Virus record (IMG/VR): IMGVR_UViG_2579779024_000005
Origin: a virus
Taxonomy: Duplodnaviria > Heunggongvirae > Uroviricota > Caudoviricetes
Strand: one strand, 5' to 3'
DNA length: 51,634 nucleotides
Shown piece by piece: positions 19,961-38,419 of this stretch (position 1 is its first letter; each line of letters opens with the position of its first letter). The notes below the pieces were generated by a model that worked only from the letters and a program-made list of their open reading frames with translations, made no database searches and was not told the DNA's origin. The position numbers and the translations under genes are program-made.

Positions 19961-20287
19961 TCATAACACCGTCGGACAACGCAAATCGTAAATCAGCACG
20001 GAAACAGAAAACGGCAGCTCCCCCTGAAGCAGTTCTTCCCGCTCCGCAAGATCCGGATTCCGGTACAGCATCCCGGTCAGTCGCATGGCAGCCCCCTTCA
20101 TCCGGGTTAATGCCTCGCCCGGGATCAGTTCACCGTCCTCACGGATCACTTTATCCCGGCTGCCCTGAATGTAGGCCAGCAGCACGGCGGTAGCCTGACG
20201 AACCTTGTCCATCAGCATGTCATCATCCGCGTCATGGTCGACACGCAGATGTGCCTTGATCTCTTCCAGTGTCAGTAATGCCGTCAT
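19961..20287 (-). CDS. Head-tail connector (gp6-like)
   Basis: 108 aa; MTALLTLEEIKAHLRVDHDADDDML... is a typical gp6-like connector N-terminus. Confidence 0.6.
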   Translation of the reverse strand: MTALLTLEEIKAHLRVDHDADDDMLMDKVRQATAVLLAYIQGSRDKVIREDGELIPGEALTRMKGAAMRLTGMLYRNPDLAEREELLQGELPFSVSVLIYDLRCPTVL

Positions 20288-29586: not shown

Positions 29587-30120
29587 TTATCTGTCGATTC
29601 CCCAGCACGCCAGCGCGCTCTCCTGGTCACGACGGAATACCTGACCGTAACAGTTATTTGAGCGAATACGGCAGTCTCTGCCACCGTCCTTAATCCACCA
29701 GCGAATCGCTTCGCATGCTCCCCTGCGATCACCTGCATTAATTCGTCTGTAAAACGTCGACGGGAAACACTTACCGGGACCAATGTTGTACGGACAGAAT
29801 GACGCGATCCCCGCTTTCTGGGGTTCGGTCAATGGCACTTTGATGTTTTTCTCCACCCATGCCAGCGCCTTATCACGCTCAATGGCGTTAACCCGGTCGC
29901 ATTTTTCCTTCGACAACTTCATGCCCGGAACGACAGGTTTGCCATCCACCAGGATGGCACCGCGGCAGATGGTCCAGATACCCGCGCCATCACGGTATGC
30001 CGTGGTGTGGTTACCTTCCTTTTCATCCAGAAACTGGTCGAGAATGTCAGGCGCAGGCGCACCAGCGGCAATCAGCGCCAGAACGGCAGCCGACAGGCCG
30101 TATCTGATTTTTGCGTTCAT
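29587..30120 (-). CDS. R: SAR endolysin (T4-lysozyme-like)
   Basis: 177 aa; N-terminal signal-anchor-release segment (LSAAVLALIAAGA) and lysozyme core (...EGNHTTAYRDGAGIWTICRG...). Confidence 0.85.
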   Translation of the reverse strand: MNAKIRYGLSAAVLALIAAGAPAPDILDQFLDEKEGNHTTAYRDGAGIWTICRGAILVDGKPVVPGMKLSKEKCDRVNAIERDKALAWVEKNIKVPLTEPQKAGIASFCPYNIGPGKCFPSTFYRRINAGDRRGACEAIRWWIKDGGRDCRIRSNNCYGQVFRRDQESALACWGIDR

Positions 30121-30225
30121 GGATATTTATCAGGATTTATCGGTTTCTGAGCCCTGGATATGTTTATCAGTTCCAGCCTGTTGCCTCAGGCTGCTAACAG
30201 GTCAATACAATCATGAGGATTATTT

Positions 30226-30498
30226 ATGGACAATAACACCATTTCTCTACAGGAGTTGCTCGACAGCATTTCCAGGCTTCGGGAAGACGTGAATACCCTT
30301 ACCGTCGCCTTCTCATATCTGGCATTCTCAATTCCAAGGGAACAGATGCAATCAACGCTGGCATCAATCCAGTTTGAATCATGCAATCCCAAATGGTCTC
30401 AGGAACAACAAGACTCTTTCAGGCGGCTTGCTGTATTACTGGATGAAAAATATGCTGGTAAAATTACCATTTCGGCGGACTCTTCAGAGAACCCGTAA
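30226..30498 (+). CDS. Hypothetical 90-aa protein, antisense to the lysis operon
   Basis: GAGGA RBS 7 bp upstream of ATG; overlaps the 3' end of the convergent 114-aa ORF by ~35 bp. Confidence 0.45.
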   Translation: MDNNTISLQELLDSISRLREDVNTLTVAFSYLAFSIPREQMQSTLASIQFESCNPKWSQEQQDSFRRLAVLLDEKYAGKITISADSSENP

Positions 30499-30808
30499 TT
30501 ATTCCCGGTAGTTTTCCTCTGTAGGTTATCAACACATCCTGCGCCTCTAAAATTACGGGGCGCTTTTCCGGCGACTGCTCATCCCCTTCACATAACCCGG
30601 CAGCAACATCCAGGAAGACCTGTCTGATGCTCCTTCTGGCTGCTGCCTCATAAAACTCCAGCGCGGCACCTTCAACACGGTCCAGCGAGATGTCCAGGTC
30701 AAAAATTTCACCGTCAAAGCGTTTTTTGTCCCGTAACGCTAAAGTTACCGTAACTTTATTCTCAAAATTGCGGATCCCTTTCACAATCAGTTCATAGTTT
30801 TGAGTCAT
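30464..30808 (-). CDS. Hypothetical protein between holin and endolysin (ydfR-like position)
   Basis: 114 aa; starts 4 bp after the holin stop. Confidence 0.55.
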   Translation of the reverse strand: MTQNYELIVKGIRNFENKVTVTLALRDKKRFDGEIFDLDISLDRVEGAALEFYEAAARRSIRQVFLDVAAGLCEGDEQSPEKRPVILEAQDVLITYRGKLPGIITGSLKSPPKW

Positions 30809-30812
30809 TGAA

Positions 30813-31028
30813 TTACTCTCCCCGTGCCGCCTTACGACGGTCCTCTCTGATTTTGAAATACAGGTTAGTCAGATATGTCAGCAGCCCAAACAGCAGACTC
30901 CCCAGCACGCCTATTGCCGCCCACTGAGACGGGGAAACCCTGTCCAGCAACTGCAGGAACCAGTAGCCCGTTCCCACCGCTGACGTGGTGTATGACACAC
31001 CTGTTGTGATTTTTTCCATCTGGTACAT
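30813..31028 (-). CDS. S: Holin with dual-start motif
   Basis: [71 protein letters not shown], as recalled for essD-type holins; M-Y-Q-M dual start. Confidence 0.85.
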
Positions 31029-31155
31029 ACCCCGTCTCCCGTTATCCGGAAGCTGACAACAATAAAAAAAGCCACCAGTTAAGTACTGATGGCTCTGATA
31101 ACTCATGCAGGCATCTCAGACGACCCACTGACACTACCGGTGAGTTTAACGATAC

Positions 31156-33417
31156 CTTCCATTTGACTGGCTCACTTTTTATGATGATGCCGGTGCATTT
31201 ATCTCCAGCACCAGACTTTCTATCTCAACGCCATACGTTGCATTTTTGGTAATATCCGTCAGCGTCAGCGCATTCAGCCCCAGTGTCAGACTGTCTTTTA
31301 TGACCTGGAATGCCGGGCCAGCCACTCCATTCAGTTTCGGAGTAACCGTGGCACTGCCGGCGGTGAACACCAGCTCCAGCGTCTGCCAGTCGTTACTGTA
31401 ATTCCCGAACTCGCCCAACTTTGTGTTTCCTGCTTTCTTGTGATGCATCAGATTCAGTTTGCCGTCTGTGGTCTGGGTGAAGAACGACATCAGGAACGGG
31501 TTACCAGTCCCGGTCATCGCCACGACGTCAGGTAACGCTACATCGGTATACAGATAAATTCCCAGACCGAACTGATTGTTGGTCAGTGCGCCTGACAGTC
31601 GAAACTTACAGCTCAGTCTGCCACCCCGTGTCAGCAGGGAGACTGCGTCATCCACCGGGCGCGTCAGGGACCAGGCTTTATTGCTCTGCTTGGTGATCTT
31701 AAATACACCATCTGACAACTGAATTCCGCCATTCTTAATGCTCCAGCCCTGCGCAGCAGCATCTCCGGCTGTCGGCAACAGGGAGATTGTGCGTACGGAT
31801 GCATCTTCAGACGGCCCCGATGGCGTGTCGCCGCCGGGCGAGGGTTTGATTTCCGGTGCCTTACCACTAATGAAGGCTAAGGTGCGACCGGCTACGTTCA
31901 GAATAGCAGTTGCCATACGATCGGGAATAATGCCACGACGCGCCCATGAGCTGAAATGCGTCGGGCGATTTGATGATACCCAGTTTTTGTTCGTTCGGGA
32001 TGCCGAACCGTAATAACCAGACCCGGCAATATCAGGATCTTCTGACGGGTTGTTTGTCGGTGTATTAACTCCGCTACCATCGGTCATAAAGGGAACAAAA
32101 TAAATCTGCTGGGATTCTTTACCTTTATATGCACCATATACCACTTCATATTGCGTACCGTGTTCTTGTTTCCACGCGTATGTCGTGTCGCCACAAATCC
32201 AGGGGACTGATGCCGGACTTCCACCGTGACACTGCGCCGCCAGCCCGGCAAGGTCAGCACGGAACTGCTGTACCATTGCAAGAAATCTTCCATTTGACTG
32301 GCTCACTTTTTATGATGATGCCGGTGCATTTATCTCCAGCACCAGACTTTCTATCTCAACGCCATACGTTGCATTTTTGGTAATATCCGTCAGCGTCAGC
32401 GCATTCAGCCCCAGTGTCAGACTGTCTTTTATGACCTGGAATGCCGGGCCAGCCACTCCATTCAGTTTCGGAGTAACCGTGGCACTGCCGGCGGTGAACA
32501 CCAGCTCCAGCGTCTGCCAGTCGTTACTGTAATTCCCGAACTCGCCCAACTTTGTGTTTCCTGCTTTCTTGTGATGCATCAGATTCAGTTTGCCGTCTGT
32601 GGTCTGGGTGAAGAACGACATCAGGAACGGGTTACCAGTCCCGGTCATCGCCACGACGTCAGGTAACGCTACATCGGTATACAGATAAATTCCCAGACCG
32701 AACTGATTGTTGGTCAGTGCGCCTGACAGTCGAAACTTACAGCTCAGTCTGCCACCCCGTGTCAGCAGGGAGACTGCGTCATCCACCGGGCGCGTCAGGG
32801 ACCAGGCTTTATTGCTCTGCTTGGTGATCTTAAATACACCATCTGACAACTGAATTCCGCCATTCTTAATGCTCCAGCCCTGCGCAGCAGCATCTCCGGC
32901 TGTCGGCAACAGGGAGATTGTGCGTACGGATGCATCTTCAGACGGCCCCGATGGCGTGTCGCCGCCGGGCGAGGGTTTGATTTCCGGTGCCTTACCACTA
33001 ATGAAGGCTAAGGTGCGACCGGCTACGTTCAGAATAGCAGTTGCCATACGATCGGGAATAATGCCACGACGCGCCCATGAGCTGAAATGCGTCGGGCGAT
33101 TTGATGATACCCAGTTTTTGTTCGTTCGGGATGCCGAACCGTAATAACCAGACCCGGCAATATCAGGATCTTCTGACGGGTTGTTTGTCGGTGTATTAAC
33201 TCCGCTACCATCGGTCATAAAGGGAACAAAATAAATCTGCTGGGATTCTTTACCTTTATATGCACCATATACCACTTCATATTGCGTACCGTGTTCTTGT
33301 TTCCACGCGTATGTCGTGTCGCCACAAATCCAGGGGACTGATGCCGGACTTCCACCGTGACACTGCGCCGCCAGCCCGGCAAGGTCAGCACGGAACTGCT
33401 GTACCATTGCAAGAAAT
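31156..33417. repeat. Perfect tandem direct duplication, 2 x 1131 bp, covering the 3' 1.1 kb of the esterase gene
   Basis: Copy 1 is 31156-32286 and copy 2 is 32287-33417; the translated ORFs in both copies are identical. Confidence 0.85.
31179..32306 (-). pseudogene. Duplicated 3' fragment of the nanS-p-like esterase gene (C-terminal 370 aa only)
   Basis: 375-aa ORF identical to the C-terminus of the 622-aa protein; its N-terminal codons are created by the duplication junction; lacks the esterase domain. Confidence 0.6.
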
Positions 33418-34178
33418 GCTGCTGGCTGCTGGGCGTAACTGGCATTCGTCATATCGAATTCCCCCTGCATCCAGCATATCGCCAGCAAAACGTTTTTCGG
33501 GTTTTTCTGCAATGCTGCCTTCGTGCGGAAAAGCAGATCCTGATATAACGGCTTACCCACTCCCCAGCGAGCCGAATCCTGACTGGCCCCCGTGGACTCG
33601 CTGAATGTCCCCTCCGTGCCCTGGGTGAATGCCGAACCACCACGACAGCATGGTACCAGCAGGATCCCCGCATTATTAGGGATATACGGAAGCAGTTTTT
33701 TGGCAATATGTAAGCCCTGTCCGACACAGCCGTACTGCCCTTTGCTCAGGTCAGCCCGGGGATGGTTAATCGTACTCATATCCTGAACATCATGCAGACA
33801 ATGGTCAGCAGGAATGATGTCGTTAAATACGCATACTTCACCACCGGGAGTCACTGTGTTACGACGGGCCAGTTGCTTAATGCGCGGATGGGGCGCATCG
33901 TATGAATCCGGAAGCGGAAGCCCTTCACCGTAAGCCATGGCATTGGATTGCCCGGCCAGTACGATGACGTAGTACCACTCCGGCTCAGTTGCACCACTGA
34001 CGACCACATCACCTTCTGCTGCAATCGCCTGCATCAGGGTATAAGGGGTTATGGCCACCGGACTACCAAACGGCTGCCAGCCCTCTTTCAGTTTATGTGT
34101 CAGCTTTTCCGCAAGATCTGACGGCGACGCCGCCCTGACAACATCATAGTGTTTAAATGCCATGGTTCTTTCCACCAT
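32310..34178 (-). CDS. nanS-p: Prophage sialate O-acetylesterase (NanS-p-like)
   Basis: 622 aa; DUF1737-like N-terminus, SGNH/SASA esterase core with GQSNA motif (IVLAGQSNAMAYGEG), C-terminal beta-rich domain. Confidence 0.75.
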   Translation of the reverse strand: MVERTMAFKHYDVVRAASPSDLAEKLTHKLKEGWQPFGSPVAITPYTLMQAIAAEGDVVVSGATEPEWYYVIVLAGQSNAMAYGEGLPLPDSYDAPHPRIKQLARRNTVTPGGEVCVFNDIIPADHCLHDVQDMSTINHPRADLSKGQYGCVGQGLHIAKKLLPYIPNNAGILLVPCCRGGSAFTQGTEGTFSESTGASQDSARWGVGKPLYQDLLFRTKAALQKNPKNVLLAICWMQGEFDMTNASYAQQPAAFLAMVQQFRADLAGLAAQCHGGSPASVPWICGDTTYAWKQEHGTQYEVVYGAYKGKESQQIYFVPFMTDGSGVNTPTNNPSEDPDIAGSGYYGSASRTNKNWVSSNRPTHFSSWARRGIIPDRMATAILNVAGRTLAFISGKAPEIKPSPGGDTPSGPSEDASVRTISLLPTAGDAAAQGWSIKNGGIQLSDGVFKITKQSNKAWSLTRPVDDAVSLLTRGGRLSCKFRLSGALTNNQFGLGIYLYTDVALPDVVAMTGTGNPFLMSFFTQTTDGKLNLMHHKKAGNTKLGEFGNYSNDWQTLELVFTAGSATVTPKLNGVAGPAFQVIKDSLTLGLNALTLTDITKNATYGVEIESLVLEINAPASS

Positions 34179-34423
34179 CTGAAAAATGATTCTTTAAAAT
34201 ACCTGACATGTAATACAGAAAAAACACAAAACCATACCTTAAATAAAAACCTCATCATCAAGCAGATATGCATGGATAAACTACAAGACGAGATATAAAC
34301 CACCCTGCATTTAAATAAACAATAAACAACATCAGAAAAATAATTCTGCTCTATGGTTTACAATCAAAAATATCATTTATACTTTTCAGAACATCACCAG
34401 CAAGGCATAAACAAGGAAACTAA

Positions 34424-34759
34424 ATGAAGTGGATTGTGATTGATACAGTTATCCAGCCATCATGCGGAATATCTTTTTCAGTCATATGGAGTAAAATAAA
34501 ATTAATAATCTGGTATCAATCGGATGCTTTCTTACCTCCTGAAAGTATATTTACACTGACTCACACAGGCATCATGCTCAATAACAAAGTGCTACCTGTA
34601 ACCATTTACAACGTAGTACCATTCAATAAAACATTCTGGAATTTAATCAAAAACAGCCAGGAATGCCCTACAAATACAGATAACGTATTGAATGAATGCT
34701 TTAATAACCGTTGCACTCTGCAAATATGTCCTTATGGACTAAAACAACAAAGTCCATAA
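34424..34759 (+). CDS. Hypothetical AT-rich ORF
   Basis: 111 aa; AT-rich; ends in a 10-bp perfect hairpin (ccttatggact...agtccataagg). Confidence 0.4.
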
Positions 34760-35206
34760 GGAGTTTACTCACATCTGACAAAATCAATATAAACAGCCCC
34801 TCCGGAGAGGGGCTGGAGAGTGGCGCTATGTGCCATTGCATGGTGCCGGGTGCCTCCCGGTGAATTCAGTACCAGCACCTGAATCCGCGATTATCCCATA
34901 TACCTACTCGCTGATTGCCCCTCCGCACAGGGGGATTCACCATGCCAGTTTCTTTTAACAAACTCCCCGCAAACCAGACAACAATCAACCGCCTGAATTG
35001 TGAAGTATTTAAAAATTTCTCCCGCTAACTGATACCCGGCTAACAGTCTGGCGTTTTCTTTTTCAGCAACGGGAAAGCAACAACCACCACACCCGCCACC
35101 AGCACACCGTCAGCCAGCACTGACATTATCCGGCTGCAGCAATGCCATTCACAAAAACAGTAAGCAATCACTTTTTACCGTAACCGGTGATAATCCAGAT
35201 ATGTAT

Positions 35207-35563
35207 CTACCCCAGATGAGTAATCCGAAGTTCATCCATACCACAGGTCCTGGCTATTCTGTTGTACTCCTGAACAAGAGTAAATAATTCTGAATTAGCC
35301 ACCATGAACTCATCGCAAACCCTCTGTATAGCATCACTATTCAGAATAATAACGTCTCTTCCCGAAAGACGATCAGGAGTACAGAACAAAACTGTCAAAC
35401 GGCTGAAGGCCTTTGCTCGTGCTGCATTGACTATATCAATACGCTGCCTAAGGATGAAACACCCCGACGCCTCATCAATATTCACTCTACCCACACCATA
35501 TGAATGATAAATATTTAATGCTGAAAAAACCATTAGACCGTATAACAAACACTCAATCAACAC
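35207..35563 (-). CDS. Hypothetical protein at the position where Stx phages carry stxAB
   Basis: 118 aa; AT-rich flanks; no recognisable motif; possible internal start at MVFSAL. Confidence 0.45.
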   Translation of the reverse strand: MLIECLLYGLMVFSALNIYHSYGVGRVNIDEASGCFILRQRIDIVNAARAKAFSRLTVLFCTPDRLSGRDVIILNSDAIQRVCDEFMVANSELFTLVQEYNRIARTCGMDELRITHLG

Positions 35564-35670
35564 TTAACAGAACTTTTATTTTTGACAAACATATAATATT
35601 TTCAACAATATCCTGAGCCAGGTATATTTCAGTATAAGGCTCTGCCGGAAGGAATCTGGAAGAATGAATA

Positions 35671-35747
35671 TGGCGCGCTGTACTGGATTCGAACCAGTGA
35701 CCGATTGCTTAGAAGGCAATTGCTCTGTCCGGCTGAGCTAACAACGC
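35671..35747 (-). tRNA. argO: tRNA-Arg (anticodon UCU)
   Basis: 77-nt cloverleaf: acceptor GCGTTGT/ACAGCGC, D-stem GCTC/GAGC, anticodon stem ATTGC/GCAAT with loop CTTCTAA, T-loop TTCGAAT, encoded CCA. Confidence 0.85.
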
Positions 35748-35847
35748 TGAATACCGATAATGGACCGCCATCGGGGACCCGCCCCCGCACCAACAACCCT
35801 GTTATCGTGTCGTCTGCTCTTCCTGATAAGCTAATGGCGGTTTGTGA

Positions 35848-35923
35848 TGGTGGCCCTTGCTGGATTTGAACCAGCGACCTGGCGATTATGAGTCGCTCGC
35901 TCTCACCACTGAGCTAAAGGGCC
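35848..35923 (-). tRNA. ileZ: tRNA with CAU anticodon, ileX/ileZ-like (tRNA-Ile2)
   Basis: 76-nt cloverleaf GGCCCTTTAGCTCAGTGGTGAGAGCGAGCGACTCATAATCGCCAGGTCGCTGGTTCAAATCCAGCAAGGGCCACCA; close to the E. coli ileX sequence as recalled. Confidence 0.8.
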
Positions 35924-35972
35924 GGGAGCAGAATAATAATGGTGCGTAATTAATTCTGCAATCTCATCCGTT

Positions 35973-37022
35973 TCAAACGATTAAACCCTGAACTTCCCTG
36001 ACTGTCTGCTCAAAACGTCCGGTCTCCAGCTCAACGCCAATCGCACGACGCCCGAGCGCCAGTGCCGCTTTTACCGTTGAACCTGAGCCCATAAAAAAAT
36101 CTGCAACCAGGTCACCCGGACGACTGCTTGCGCTGATTATCTGCTGCAGCATTTCTGCCGGTTTTTCGCACGGATGTTTCCCGGGATAGAACTGCACCGG
36201 TTTATGTGTCCACACATCCGTGTACGGCACCTGCGCCGTCACACCAAAATACCGCCGCAGATGCTTATATTCACTCTGCAGCTCCACATACTGCCGGTTC
36301 AGTGACGTATACGTATCCACCAGCTGGTGGTGGGGCTTTTCCAGTTCACCGCGCTGATGTTTCTCTTCTGCCACCCGGGCAAACAGCGACTGTAATTTCA
36401 GATAATCGCTTTCGTTCGGTAGCTGCCACTGACTGGCACTGAACCAGTGCGACACCATGTTTTTCTTTCCTGTGGCATCTGCAATCTGTTTTGCCGTTAT
36501 CCCCAGGGCCGCGCGCGCATCACGAAAGTAAGAAATCAGCGGGGCCATCACATGCTGTTTCAGTGCACTGCCCTTCGCCGCATACCCGGCATCTTTCGGA
36601 CGATACGGCCCCTGATAATGTTCCGCGAACAGAATGCGCTCTGTGGCGGGGAAATACGCCCGCAGGCTTTCCTTGTTGCATCCGTTCCAGCGTCCGGACG
36701 GCTTCGCCCAGATAATATGGTTCAGCACACTGAAGCGTTCACGCATCATGATTTCGATATCAGATGCCAGGCGATGACCACAGAACAGGTAAAGACTTCC
36801 GGCAGGTTTCAGCACCCGCCAGAACTGCGCCAGACACTGGTCCAGCCACTTCAGGTAATCATCGTCGCCCTTCCACTGGTTATCCCAGCCCTCAGGCTTC
36901 ACTTTAAAGTACGGCGGGTCCGTGACTATCAGGTCAACAGAATTTTCGGGTAACGACCGGATAAATTCCAGGCAGTCGGCGTTGATTAACTCACAACTGG
37001 ATATTTTTACAGTATTAGCCAT
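35973..37022 (-). CDS. Orphan DNA N6-adenine/N4-cytosine methyltransferase
   Basis: 349 aa; DPPY catalytic motif (LIVTDPPYF) and C-terminal AdoMet-binding region (FFMGSGST). Confidence 0.85.
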   Translation of the reverse strand: MANTVKISSCELINADCLEFIRSLPENSVDLIVTDPPYFKVKPEGWDNQWKGDDDYLKWLDQCLAQFWRVLKPAGSLYLFCGHRLASDIEIMMRERFSVLNHIIWAKPSGRWNGCNKESLRAYFPATERILFAEHYQGPYRPKDAGYAAKGSALKQHVMAPLISYFRDARAALGITAKQIADATGKKNMVSHWFSASQWQLPNESDYLKLQSLFARVAEEKHQRGELEKPHHQLVDTYTSLNRQYVELQSEYKHLRRYFGVTAQVPYTDVWTHKPVQFYPGKHPCEKPAEMLQQIISASSRPGDLVADFFMGSGSTVKAALALGRRAIGVELETGRFEQTVREVQGLIV

Positions 37023-37173
37023 AGATCAATAAGCACTTCTCTGATAGGCTCATACCGCTTTTGCGCAAAGCAGATGGGCCTGAGGTTTGCTTGTGACCCC
37101 AACGCATGAGCAGATGGCTGGTGGGTGCCCCTAACACCCACCAGCCGCCCATTTACCACAAATAAAAAAGCCT

Positions 37174-37371
37174 TCACTGCGGAAGGCGTCTGTAACAACC
37201 GAACTGATAGTCTGCCAGACCCGCCATAACCAGCTGGGTCAGTATTAACTGGCAGCGTTCGCGTGAAAGGTAAGTATTCTGCGCAATCTCCCCGGCTGTC
37301 GCCGGTTCGGTGACGCTTAATTCATTAAACACCACTCTGGCGGTTTCTGTCATATCCTGCTGTTTCAGCAT
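37174..37371 (-). CDS. Small hypothetical protein downstream of tR'
   Basis: About 65 aa from an internal ATG with AAGGGA RBS. Confidence 0.35.
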   Translation of the reverse strand: MLKQQDMTETARVVFNELSVTEPATAGEIAQNTYLSRERCQLILTQLVMAGLADYQFGCYRRLPQ

Positions 37372-37493
37372 GTCTTTTTCCCTTTTCCGGTTAACGTGAC
37401 ACACCAATAACTCTTGTCGAAAAAGCCAGCAAGCTGAAAGACAGGTATTCACCGCCACCAGCGCGTTTACTGTACTGACGCGATTTCAGTCAT

Positions 37494-37515
37494 AAAAAAC
37501 CCGCCAGGCGGCGGG
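37494..37515 (-). terminator. tR'-like intrinsic terminator downstream of the late promoter
   Basis: Minus strand: cccgcc-gcct-ggcggg followed by a U-run. Confidence 0.55.
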
Positions 37516-37564
37516 GTGTAAAAAATCTTCTAACGTCAGGCATAAAACGCCCATCGTTAGAGCA

Positions 37565-37592
37565 AATTTACCACAGATTCGGGAAAAATCAA
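37565..37592 (-). promoter_or_regulatory. Late promoter pR' with expected qut site
   Basis: Minus strand TTGATT-16 bp-TAAATT directly downstream of Q; lambda pR' has -10 TAAATT as recalled. Confidence 0.5.
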
Positions 37593-37597
37593 CAACA

Positions 37598-38419
37598 CTA
37601 TCGCGTTACCCTCTTTAACTGCCGCTCCGCCCATGCCTCTTCAATGTCAAACCGAACCACCAACGTATCGTAAAAGCGTTTCACTGATTTTTTCCACGTA
37701 TCAAGCGTGATAGCACTCGTCACTTTGCATATGGCATTAAATGCCTCCGTTGATGGTAGTCTTTCACAGCCACGACCACCACAACGCTGGCAGTCTCTGA
37801 TAACAGGCATACCACGTTTTACCGACTCTTCACGATGAATGGCGACACCACGCCCACGGCAGTCTTTACAGGCAGTGGAAATCTCCCCCTTCCCTTTACA
37901 TTCAGGACAAGAAACTTTCACCACCTCCCGAATTTTTTTCCATTCTTCCCAGTAAGACGGATACACACCTTTCGTACACTTTGCCCATACTGGCGGCTTG
38001 CCATCCGGATACTGAACCTTGTTTGTAAAAACTTCGCCTTCAATAAATTTTTCCCCTCGGCAACAGGGGCACTGCTTTTTACTCGCTGCGCTGCGGGCAT
38101 AATCCTCAAAAGCGTACGAAGCCATAATGCGCATCACTACCGGTTTTATTTCTGCCGGAAGTTTTCTCAACGCCGCCACACGATCGCACCGACTGAGTGC
38201 ATAATCTGCCAGTAATTCTGTTGCCCGCGCCCTGTCATTCATACTGATGCCCATTTTCCCCAGGAACGCAGAAAACCCCATCTCAGCCCGATTCTGTGTC
38301 ATGCCCTGCGCGGCCATCACATCAGTGATACTCAGCGCATCTTTCGACGTTGAGGCCGATGCATCAGTCAGGCCGGGGGATTTTGGGGAGTAGTATTTCG
38401 GTAAATCTTCCAGTTTCAT
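37598..38419 (-). CDS. Q: Antitermination protein Q-like
   Basis: 273 aa with several CxxC pairs (CPCCRGEK, CPECKGKG, CKDCRGRG, CQRCGGRG); position upstream of pR'/tR'. Confidence 0.65.
   Translation of the reverse strand: MKLEDLPKYYSPKSPGLTDASASTSKDALSITDVMAAQGMTQNRAEMGFSAFLGKMGISMNDRARATELLADYALSRCDRVAALRKLPAEIKPVVMRIMASYAFEDYARSAASKKQCPCCRGEKFIEGEVFTNKVQYPDGKPPVWAKCTKGVYPSYWEEWKKIREVVKVSCPECKGKGEISTACKDCRGRGVAIHREESVKRGMPVIRDCQRCGGRGCERLPSTEAFNAICKVTSAITLDTWKKSVKRFYDTLVVRFDIEEAWAERQLKRVTR

Follow-up and report, generated by a model that had tools for sequence, protein, structure and literature searches.

A Perfect 1131-bp Tandem Repeat in the nanS-p-Type Esterase Gene of a Non-Stx Lambdoid Prophage: Probable Recent Duplication or Assembly Artefact

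Introduction

Lambdoid phages, whether or not they carry Shiga toxin (Stx) genes, encode esterases of the NanS-p type, among them L0105/z1466 of 933W, vb_24B_21/gp84 of phi24B, and the allele of phage 86. These proteins share an architecture of DUF1737, a SASA/SGNH catalytic domain, and a lectin-like C-terminal module, and their genes occupy the same place in the late operon, between the Q/tRNA region and the holin gene. Here we describe a gene of this type in a stretch of caudoviricete DNA of 51,634 nucleotides (nt), IMG/VR record IMGVR_UViG_2579779024_000005, hereafter the window. In the window a second copy of the esterase gene, truncated at its 5' end, comes after the intact gene as the result of an exact 1131-bp tandem repeat that we read as probably genuine.

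The three-domain organization of NanS-p has been described previously, in a diversity survey that mentions neither a duplication nor a truncation of the gene (PMC10462455). Esterase activity on Neu5,9Ac2 was shown for the NanS-p alleles of EDL933 and O104:H4, the intact esterase being the active unit in the characterised enzymes (PMC8065619). The closest phage allele to the gene in the window is that of Stx2 phage 86, with 97.7% DNA identity; it is present there as a single copy and has in common with the window gene an unusual RPTH block (PMC10462455). Unlike the Stx phages of this group, the prophage in the window has no stx genes, and tRNA genes together with an iraM-like gene stand in their place. 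The chromosomal NanS (YjhS, PDB: 3PT5) aligns over its full length to amino acids (aa) 64–384 of the window esterase, including the GQSN serine and the His364 block, but it lacks both DUF1737 and the C-terminal lectin-like module and is not phage-borne.

The repeat itself resembles the RecA-independent short-junction duplications of enterobacteria, which are likewise head-to-tail, identical, private to a lineage, and devoid of extended homology at their ends. It differs from them in its join, at which 0 bases are shared, in the small size of its unit (1.1 kb), and in having no evident selective reason, because the complete gene is not doubled. It also resembles the copy-number errors of assemblies made from short reads and mate pairs, in that the repeat is longer than the reads and the draft comes from a project that flags such errors. 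The documented errors of this kind are miscounts of true repeats, whereas about 300 relatives of this prophage carry a single copy, so that an error here would require the junction itself to be spurious. Whether a structural variant or an assembly error, the duplication is of an ordinary class and affects a known gene, and the structure is already public, unremarked, in the GenBank draft GCA_000692595.1.

Structure of the Tandem Repeat

Positions 31156–32286 and 32287–33417 of the window are identical base for base (1131 bp, 0 mismatches). The identity extends for 0 bases to the left and 0 bases to the right of this unit, which makes the boundaries of the repeat unambiguous, and an exact repeat of 1131 bp cannot have arisen by chance. 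An earlier note on this DNA had described the same exact tandem duplication, covering the 3' part of the esterase gene with about 22 bp of downstream sequence; the duplication and the affected part of the gene are as it described, and the downstream tail amounts to 23 bp. The whole tandem structure measures 2.26 kb.

The esterase is encoded on the minus strand, a detail that the earlier description had not given. The repeat copy at 32287–33417 forms the 3' part of the intact gene, and the second copy, at 31156–32286, lies downstream of it as transcribed. Followed in the direction of the gene, the unit begins at the third base of codon 254, takes in everything as far as codon 622 and the stop codon, and ends with a 23-nt 3' tail. 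The breakpoints consequently fall in codon 254, inside the SGNH catalytic domain, and 23 nt beyond the esterase stop.

The novel junction (region 32277–32296) lies between positions 32287 and 32286, where the plus strand reads AAAT/CTTC. On the plus strand, the join is ...GCAAGAAAT/CTTCCATTT..., with 0 bp of microhomology; the bases on either side of the junction are GCTGTACCATTGCAAGAAAT/CTTCCATTTGACTGGCTCAC, and the novel join is also given by ...TTGCAAGAAAT/CTTCCATTTGA.... The parental joins of the repeat are at window positions 31155/31156 and 33417/33418. No direct or inverted repeats in register were found at these two parental breakpoints, and no insertion sequence (IS) was found at the join.

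A repeat search across the whole window returned two long direct repeats and no others, the one of 1131 bp and one of 162 bp in the portal gene. Tandem Repeats Finder reported nothing and passed over the 1131-bp repeat for the sole reason that it considers periods of up to 500. Both copies map onto one and the same 1131-bp segment of Escherichia coli strain H105.

The Intact Esterase Gene

The intact esterase gene extends from 34178 to 32310 (window 32310–34178, minus strand). Read from the first ATG it specifies 622 aa, and from the annotated start, which is at 34163, 617 aa; its TAA stop occupies 32312–32310. Pfam assigned DUF1737 to aa 8–55 (34157–34014), SASA to aa 71–267 (E = 1.4e-12), and DUF6645 to aa 472–582. 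Solved structures sharpened the domain borders beyond those of Pfam. NanS (PDB: 3PT5) matched aa 64–384 (33989–33027) with E = 4.7e-122, delimiting the NanS-like SGNH catalytic domain, and the structure 6YP6, deposited as "NanS-p", matched aa 426–618 (32903–32325) with E = 8.7e-31, delimiting the lectin-like C-terminal module.

Ser78 lies in the GQSN motif (aa 76–79) and is encoded at 33947–33945 on the minus strand, while His364 lies in the RPTH motif (aa 361–364) and is encoded at 33089–33087 on the same strand. Both residues are conserved in the alignment to NanS 3PT5, and in the paper on that structure this serine and histidine are reportedly the catalytic pair of NanS. The features of the NanS-p family are thus present, namely the SASA/SGNH catalytic domain with both flanking domains, the SGNH blocks, and the genomic position. 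By its sequence and position the gene is a prophage esterase of the NanS-p type, in agreement with the nanS-p-like identity proposed in the earlier note; the domains, the matches to the NanS and NanS-p structures, and the RPTH block of the phage 86 type all bear this out. The full-length protein is found, as an exact match, on at least 1000 public contigs.

The Truncated Second Copy

The partial copy contains an open reading frame (ORF) from 32306 to 31179 (31179–32306, minus strand) that encodes 375 aa from a GTG located 4 nt past the TAA stop of the intact gene. The GenBank gene call on this copy begins instead at the ATG at 32276 on the minus strand and yields 365 aa (KDG29067.1, locus AE50_01703). 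These ORF coordinates and the domains within them uphold the earlier description of an intact, full-length 622-aa gene accompanied by a 5'-truncated, 375-aa C-terminal copy. Since 1131 is 3 × 377, the frame stays open across the junction and the partial ORF is in frame with the gene upstream, the only stops across the join being at codons 623 and 1000.

The partial copy encodes aa 255–622, a stretch that holds the final third of the catalytic domain, the linker, and the C-terminal module in full; the first seven residues of the 375-aa ORF are encoded by what was the 3' untranslated tail and by the junction. It retains the RPTH block with His364, but DUF1737, Ser78 of the GQSN motif, and about two thirds of the SGNH fold are absent from it. 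With these parts missing, the partial copy, to judge from its sequence, cannot act as an esterase. In phi24B gp84, DUF1737 is reported to be the domain that binds and decorates the capsid, and the protein to be cleaved between its domains (2026 preprint); a fragment that lacks DUF1737 could not decorate capsids. If translated, the fragment could at most supply a free C-terminal lectin-like module. No Shine-Dalgarno sequence precedes the GTG of the partial ORF, and the ATG at 32276 is preceded by just a weak GGAAG.

Source of the Window and Comparison with Related Prophages

Scaffold KK736396.1 of E. coli BIDMC 75 (GCA_000692595.1) matches window positions 25179–38276 at 100%, junction included. 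Its gene order is the 617-aa gene, the 365-aa ORF, and the holin gene, and the coding sequences (CDSs) of both esterase copies are annotated. The scaffold is evidently the source of the window or a copy of that source, and it is not independent support for the junction for this reason. Neither the window nor the scaffold contains any N bases. While the 365-aa form is on record as KDG29067.1, the junction-specific 375-aa ORF had no exact match among about 15 billion proteins.

The window represents a non-Stx lambdoid prophage of ST131-type (sequence type 131) E. coli, integrated beside ompW. About 300 complete E. coli genomes carry this prophage at ~100% identity. Comparison with strain H105 (NZ_CP021454.1) disclosed 0 single-nucleotide polymorphisms (SNPs) over the whole length of the window and three structural differences: the window has the 1131-bp duplication, it lacks ISEc52, and it has one 162-bp portal unit fewer. 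The 0 differences between the copies, together with the 0 SNPs between this prophage and that of H105, indicate that the event, if real, is very young.

Origin of the Repeat

We consider it probable, though well short of certain, that the repeat is a genuine, very recent, and fixed tandem duplication private to E. coli BIDMC 75, an ST131-like clinical isolate. That the junction exists in the DNA of the isolate we infer from the nature of the assembly. BIDMC 75 itself was presumably assembled with ALLPATHS-LG and Pilon. Assemblers built on k-mer graphs write a novel junction only if the reads contain it. The BIDMC isolates, part of a multi-hospital project on carbapenem resistance, were sequenced from Illumina libraries of two kinds, paired-end and mate-pair with long inserts (PMC8981930), and the standard design of the institute combined a 180-bp fragment library with a 3–5 kb jumping library, ALLPATHS-LG assembly, and polishing with Pilon (PMC4237348). 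With such a source an invented junction is unlikely, while the copy number still has to be inferred; the 3–5 kb mate pairs of the standard design are longer than the 2.26-kb structure, which makes one copy separable from two.

The duplication would be the outcome of an illegitimate, RecA-independent join within the late operon and not of unequal crossing-over between repeats, because the joined ends share no homology. Such an event would have left the esterase gene unchanged and placed the 5'-truncated copy downstream of it. We infer that the partial copy has no function of its own: it would be a pseudogene-like passenger, transcribed passively with the Q-antiterminated late operon, and the duplication is probably neutral. 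Its expected fate would be loss through homologous recombination between the 1.1-kb copies. As the late operon is under Q antitermination, an extra 1.1 kb before the holin gene should leave lysis undisturbed, and packaging is unlikely to be affected by the 2% that is added to the genome length.

The earlier note had left the choice between a very recent duplication and an assembly artefact, and this was the right pair of alternatives, given copies with 0 differences, 0 SNPs relative to H105, and one carrier assembly. Several observations weigh against a genuine duplication. Spontaneous short-junction duplications more typically share a few bases at the join, and here the microhomology is zero. 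When 300 bp around the junction served as the query, 0 of 5,426 complete E. coli genomes and 0 of 50,697 phage records spanned it, although 2,062 of the genomes match one half or the other, often at 100%. The exact 40-mer of the junction occurs in none of three collections (viral, metagenome, and one-genome-per-species), and its 22-mer core is absent from the same three collections bar one match in a Flavobacteriaceae metagenome-assembled genome (32% GC), which has no flanking similarity and is due to chance. The sole carrier of the junction is evidently the presumptive source assembly, so that the structure is unique to one draft among thousands of genomes with the same prophage. Moreover, assemblies of this design can only infer how many copies there are of a tandem repeat that exceeds the read length (PMC4237348), and the project's own authors name incorrect tandem-repeat copy counts as a class of error. 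These points could be accommodated by an artefact in which there is one true copy and the second was written by the assembler, the scaffolder, or the gap-closer, either by abutting overlapping contig ends without merging them or by mis-resolving a loop in the graph. Perfect copies that meet at arbitrary positions with zero microhomology have the look of an unmerged overlap, and short reads cannot traverse 1131 bp. Nevertheless, neither the sequence of the window nor that of the public scaffold shows an N or a gap at the junction, no second anomaly of such kind occurs in the window, and k-mer graph assemblers, as is established, write no junction k-mers that the reads do not contain. The documented errors of the pipeline are miscounts of true tandem repeats and not doublings of single-copy sequence (PMC4237348), and mate pairs of 3–5 kb span the structure. 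An artefact is thus the less likely explanation, if one to be taken seriously. A real junction in a misrepresented structure, that is, a duplication confined to a subpopulation of cells or of spontaneously induced phage genomes, or more than two copies reduced to two, is improbable. Tandem duplications are unstable and heterogeneous in cultures, and depth and mate pairs are the basis on which such assemblies infer copy number; however, mate pairs of 3–5 kb would tell two copies from three or more, and there is no sign in the sequence of selection for amplification, as the fragment that would be multiplied is catalytically dead and the intact gene is not multiplied.

A different view of the consequences would hold the second copy to be a functional new gene, translated from the late transcript by reinitiation at the GTG 4 nt or the ATG 33 nt past the TAA and then cleaved, with a free lectin-like carbohydrate-binding module as its product that alters the binding of the phage or the lysogen to mucin or other glycans. 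The open frame across the junction and the start codons near the upstream stop are in keeping with this idea, as is the preservation of a complete 6YP6-like C-terminal module (aa 426–618), and the NanS-p of phi24B is reportedly cleaved between its catalytic and C-terminal domains (2026 preprint). Set against this are the missing or weak ribosome-binding signals described above and the N-terminal 130 aa of the product, which are only part of an alpha/beta fold and unlikely to fold independently. In addition, the arrangement has no second occurrence and no conservation in the collections searched, and the copies have had no time to diverge and display no sign of selection. We therefore regard a functional new gene as very improbable. 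Were it true, it would amount to the birth, in one step, of a stand-alone glycan-binding protein from a capsid-decoration esterase.

Returning to the genuine, neutral duplication that we favour, its interest would be to show an illegitimate tandem duplication at a very young stage in a clinical isolate of the ST131 type, and to exemplify how partial gene copies arise in the accessory regions of prophages. Should the repeat be an artefact, caution would be due on GCA_000692595.1 and on KDG29067.1, which would be a spurious 365-aa "deacetylase" entry. Either way, the intact nanS-p gene and the lysis genes of the prophage are unaffected. The repeat has no bearing on the open questions of NanS-p function, and a single private instance adds nothing of principle.

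Other Records with the 365-aa Protein or a Disrupted Esterase

The 365-aa ORF is also present on other contigs (L003, L005, L006, and L008), where single-copy genes are split by small indels and there is no duplication. Two of these, from the chromosome-scale assemblies GCA_039615195.1 and GCA_039615235.1 (L005 and L006), have 19–25 gap openings and 0 substitutions relative to the window over 7 kb. Many phage genes are split in them (those of the esterase, the terminase, the antiterminator, and the methylase), and the splits look like uncorrected indel errors of long reads rather than real pseudogenes. The split esterase in these assemblies is one source of the 365-aa protein entries.

Contig JAGTHB010000006.1 (GCA_050026235.1; L007, 1–540) begins with nt 812–1262 of a divergent nanS-p allele (82% identity) and continues, out of frame, with the allele in the window from its nt 733 on (100%). 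Either the esterase genes of two prophages have recombined here, or the end of the contig is chimeric. This different internal junction lies 29 nt away from the breakpoint in the window. We rejected the idea of a breakpoint hot spot as an ascertainment effect: the contig was found through the exact 365-aa ORF, which is called only if the disruption falls between Met244 and Met258, so the closeness is uninformative. Two entries of complete genomes named "DUF6645 domain-containing protein" were likewise discarded as instances of the duplication. That of AR_0017 is the full-length gene under another name, and that of Ecol_AZ146 is a deletion fusion of methyltransferase and esterase.

Prophage Context

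According to the annotation of H105, the gene order is Q-type antiterminator, DNA methyltransferase, tRNAs, iraM-like gene, esterase, holin, and lysozyme. The esterase gene is located at the canonical place of nanS-p, after the Q/tRNA region and before the holin gene, and stx is absent. The window ends at the last base of the integrase CDS, and this exact end suggests that the window was cut out by a prophage predictor. After the esterase, the next gene in the late operon is that of a class II holin (30813–31028, minus strand; H105 annotation), whose distance from the intact esterase gene the duplication increases by 1131 bp. A consensus scan indicated a terminator-like hairpin in the interval that separates the holin gene from the esterase region (31068–31096, minus strand), outside the repeat and in single copy.

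ARAGORN placed the tRNAs of the prophage at 35671–35923 on the minus strand. It called the second of them tRNA-Met (CAT), while RefSeq lists a tRNA-Ile in H105; this discrepancy is expected, given that the CAT anticodon reads Ile codons once it is modified with lysidine. This CAT tRNA and a tRNA-Arg (TCT) together occupy the place that in Stx phages is upstream of the stx site.

Insertion sequences distinguish several of the related prophages. In H105 and many ST131 genomes, ISEc52, of the IS3 family, is flanked by the lysozyme gene and by a small ORF that follows the holin gene, at a site that corresponds to about 30196–30199 of the window (L001, 20201–21449); the window has no ISEc52. We considered this element as a cause of the junction and dismissed it, for it lies ~1 kb away in H105, is absent from the window, and is unrelated. 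Other ST131 genomes have ISEc23, ISEc53, or ISEc10 elsewhere in the same 22-kb stretch, and none of these is present in the window. An ISEc12 insertion in a lom-like gene is common to the window and H105.

The portal gene (20284–22707, minus strand) contains tandem 162-bp units at 20738–21223, each of 54 codons and in frame. Their number varies among otherwise identical ST131 prophages, the gene measuring 2586 bp in H105 and 2424 bp in the window and many others. The form in the window is the common one, which many ST131 genomes match at 100%, and the hybrid pattern of mismatches fits unequal crossing-over between the units.

Several "complete" ST131 records (2017_APHA, EcPF18, 1162T7, S2, S4, and R2) begin exactly at the ATG of terL of this prophage (window 26581, minus strand), and the gene of the small subunit crosses the origin of the record. 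In NZ_CP051615.1, for example, this ATG is position 1. Those chromosomes were apparently re-oriented on the phage terL and not on dnaA. A link between such re-orientation of circular assemblies and the duplication was rejected, as the terL point (26581) is 4.6 kb away and the source is a linear draft scaffold.

In a related prophage of Ecol_AZ146 (NZ_CP018991.1; L010, 3040–4922), a deletion has joined a DNA methyltransferase gene truncated at its 3' end to an esterase gene truncated at its 5' end. This fusion removes the tRNA/iraM region and is adjoined by a gene pair for DUF262 and HEPN-like nucleases.

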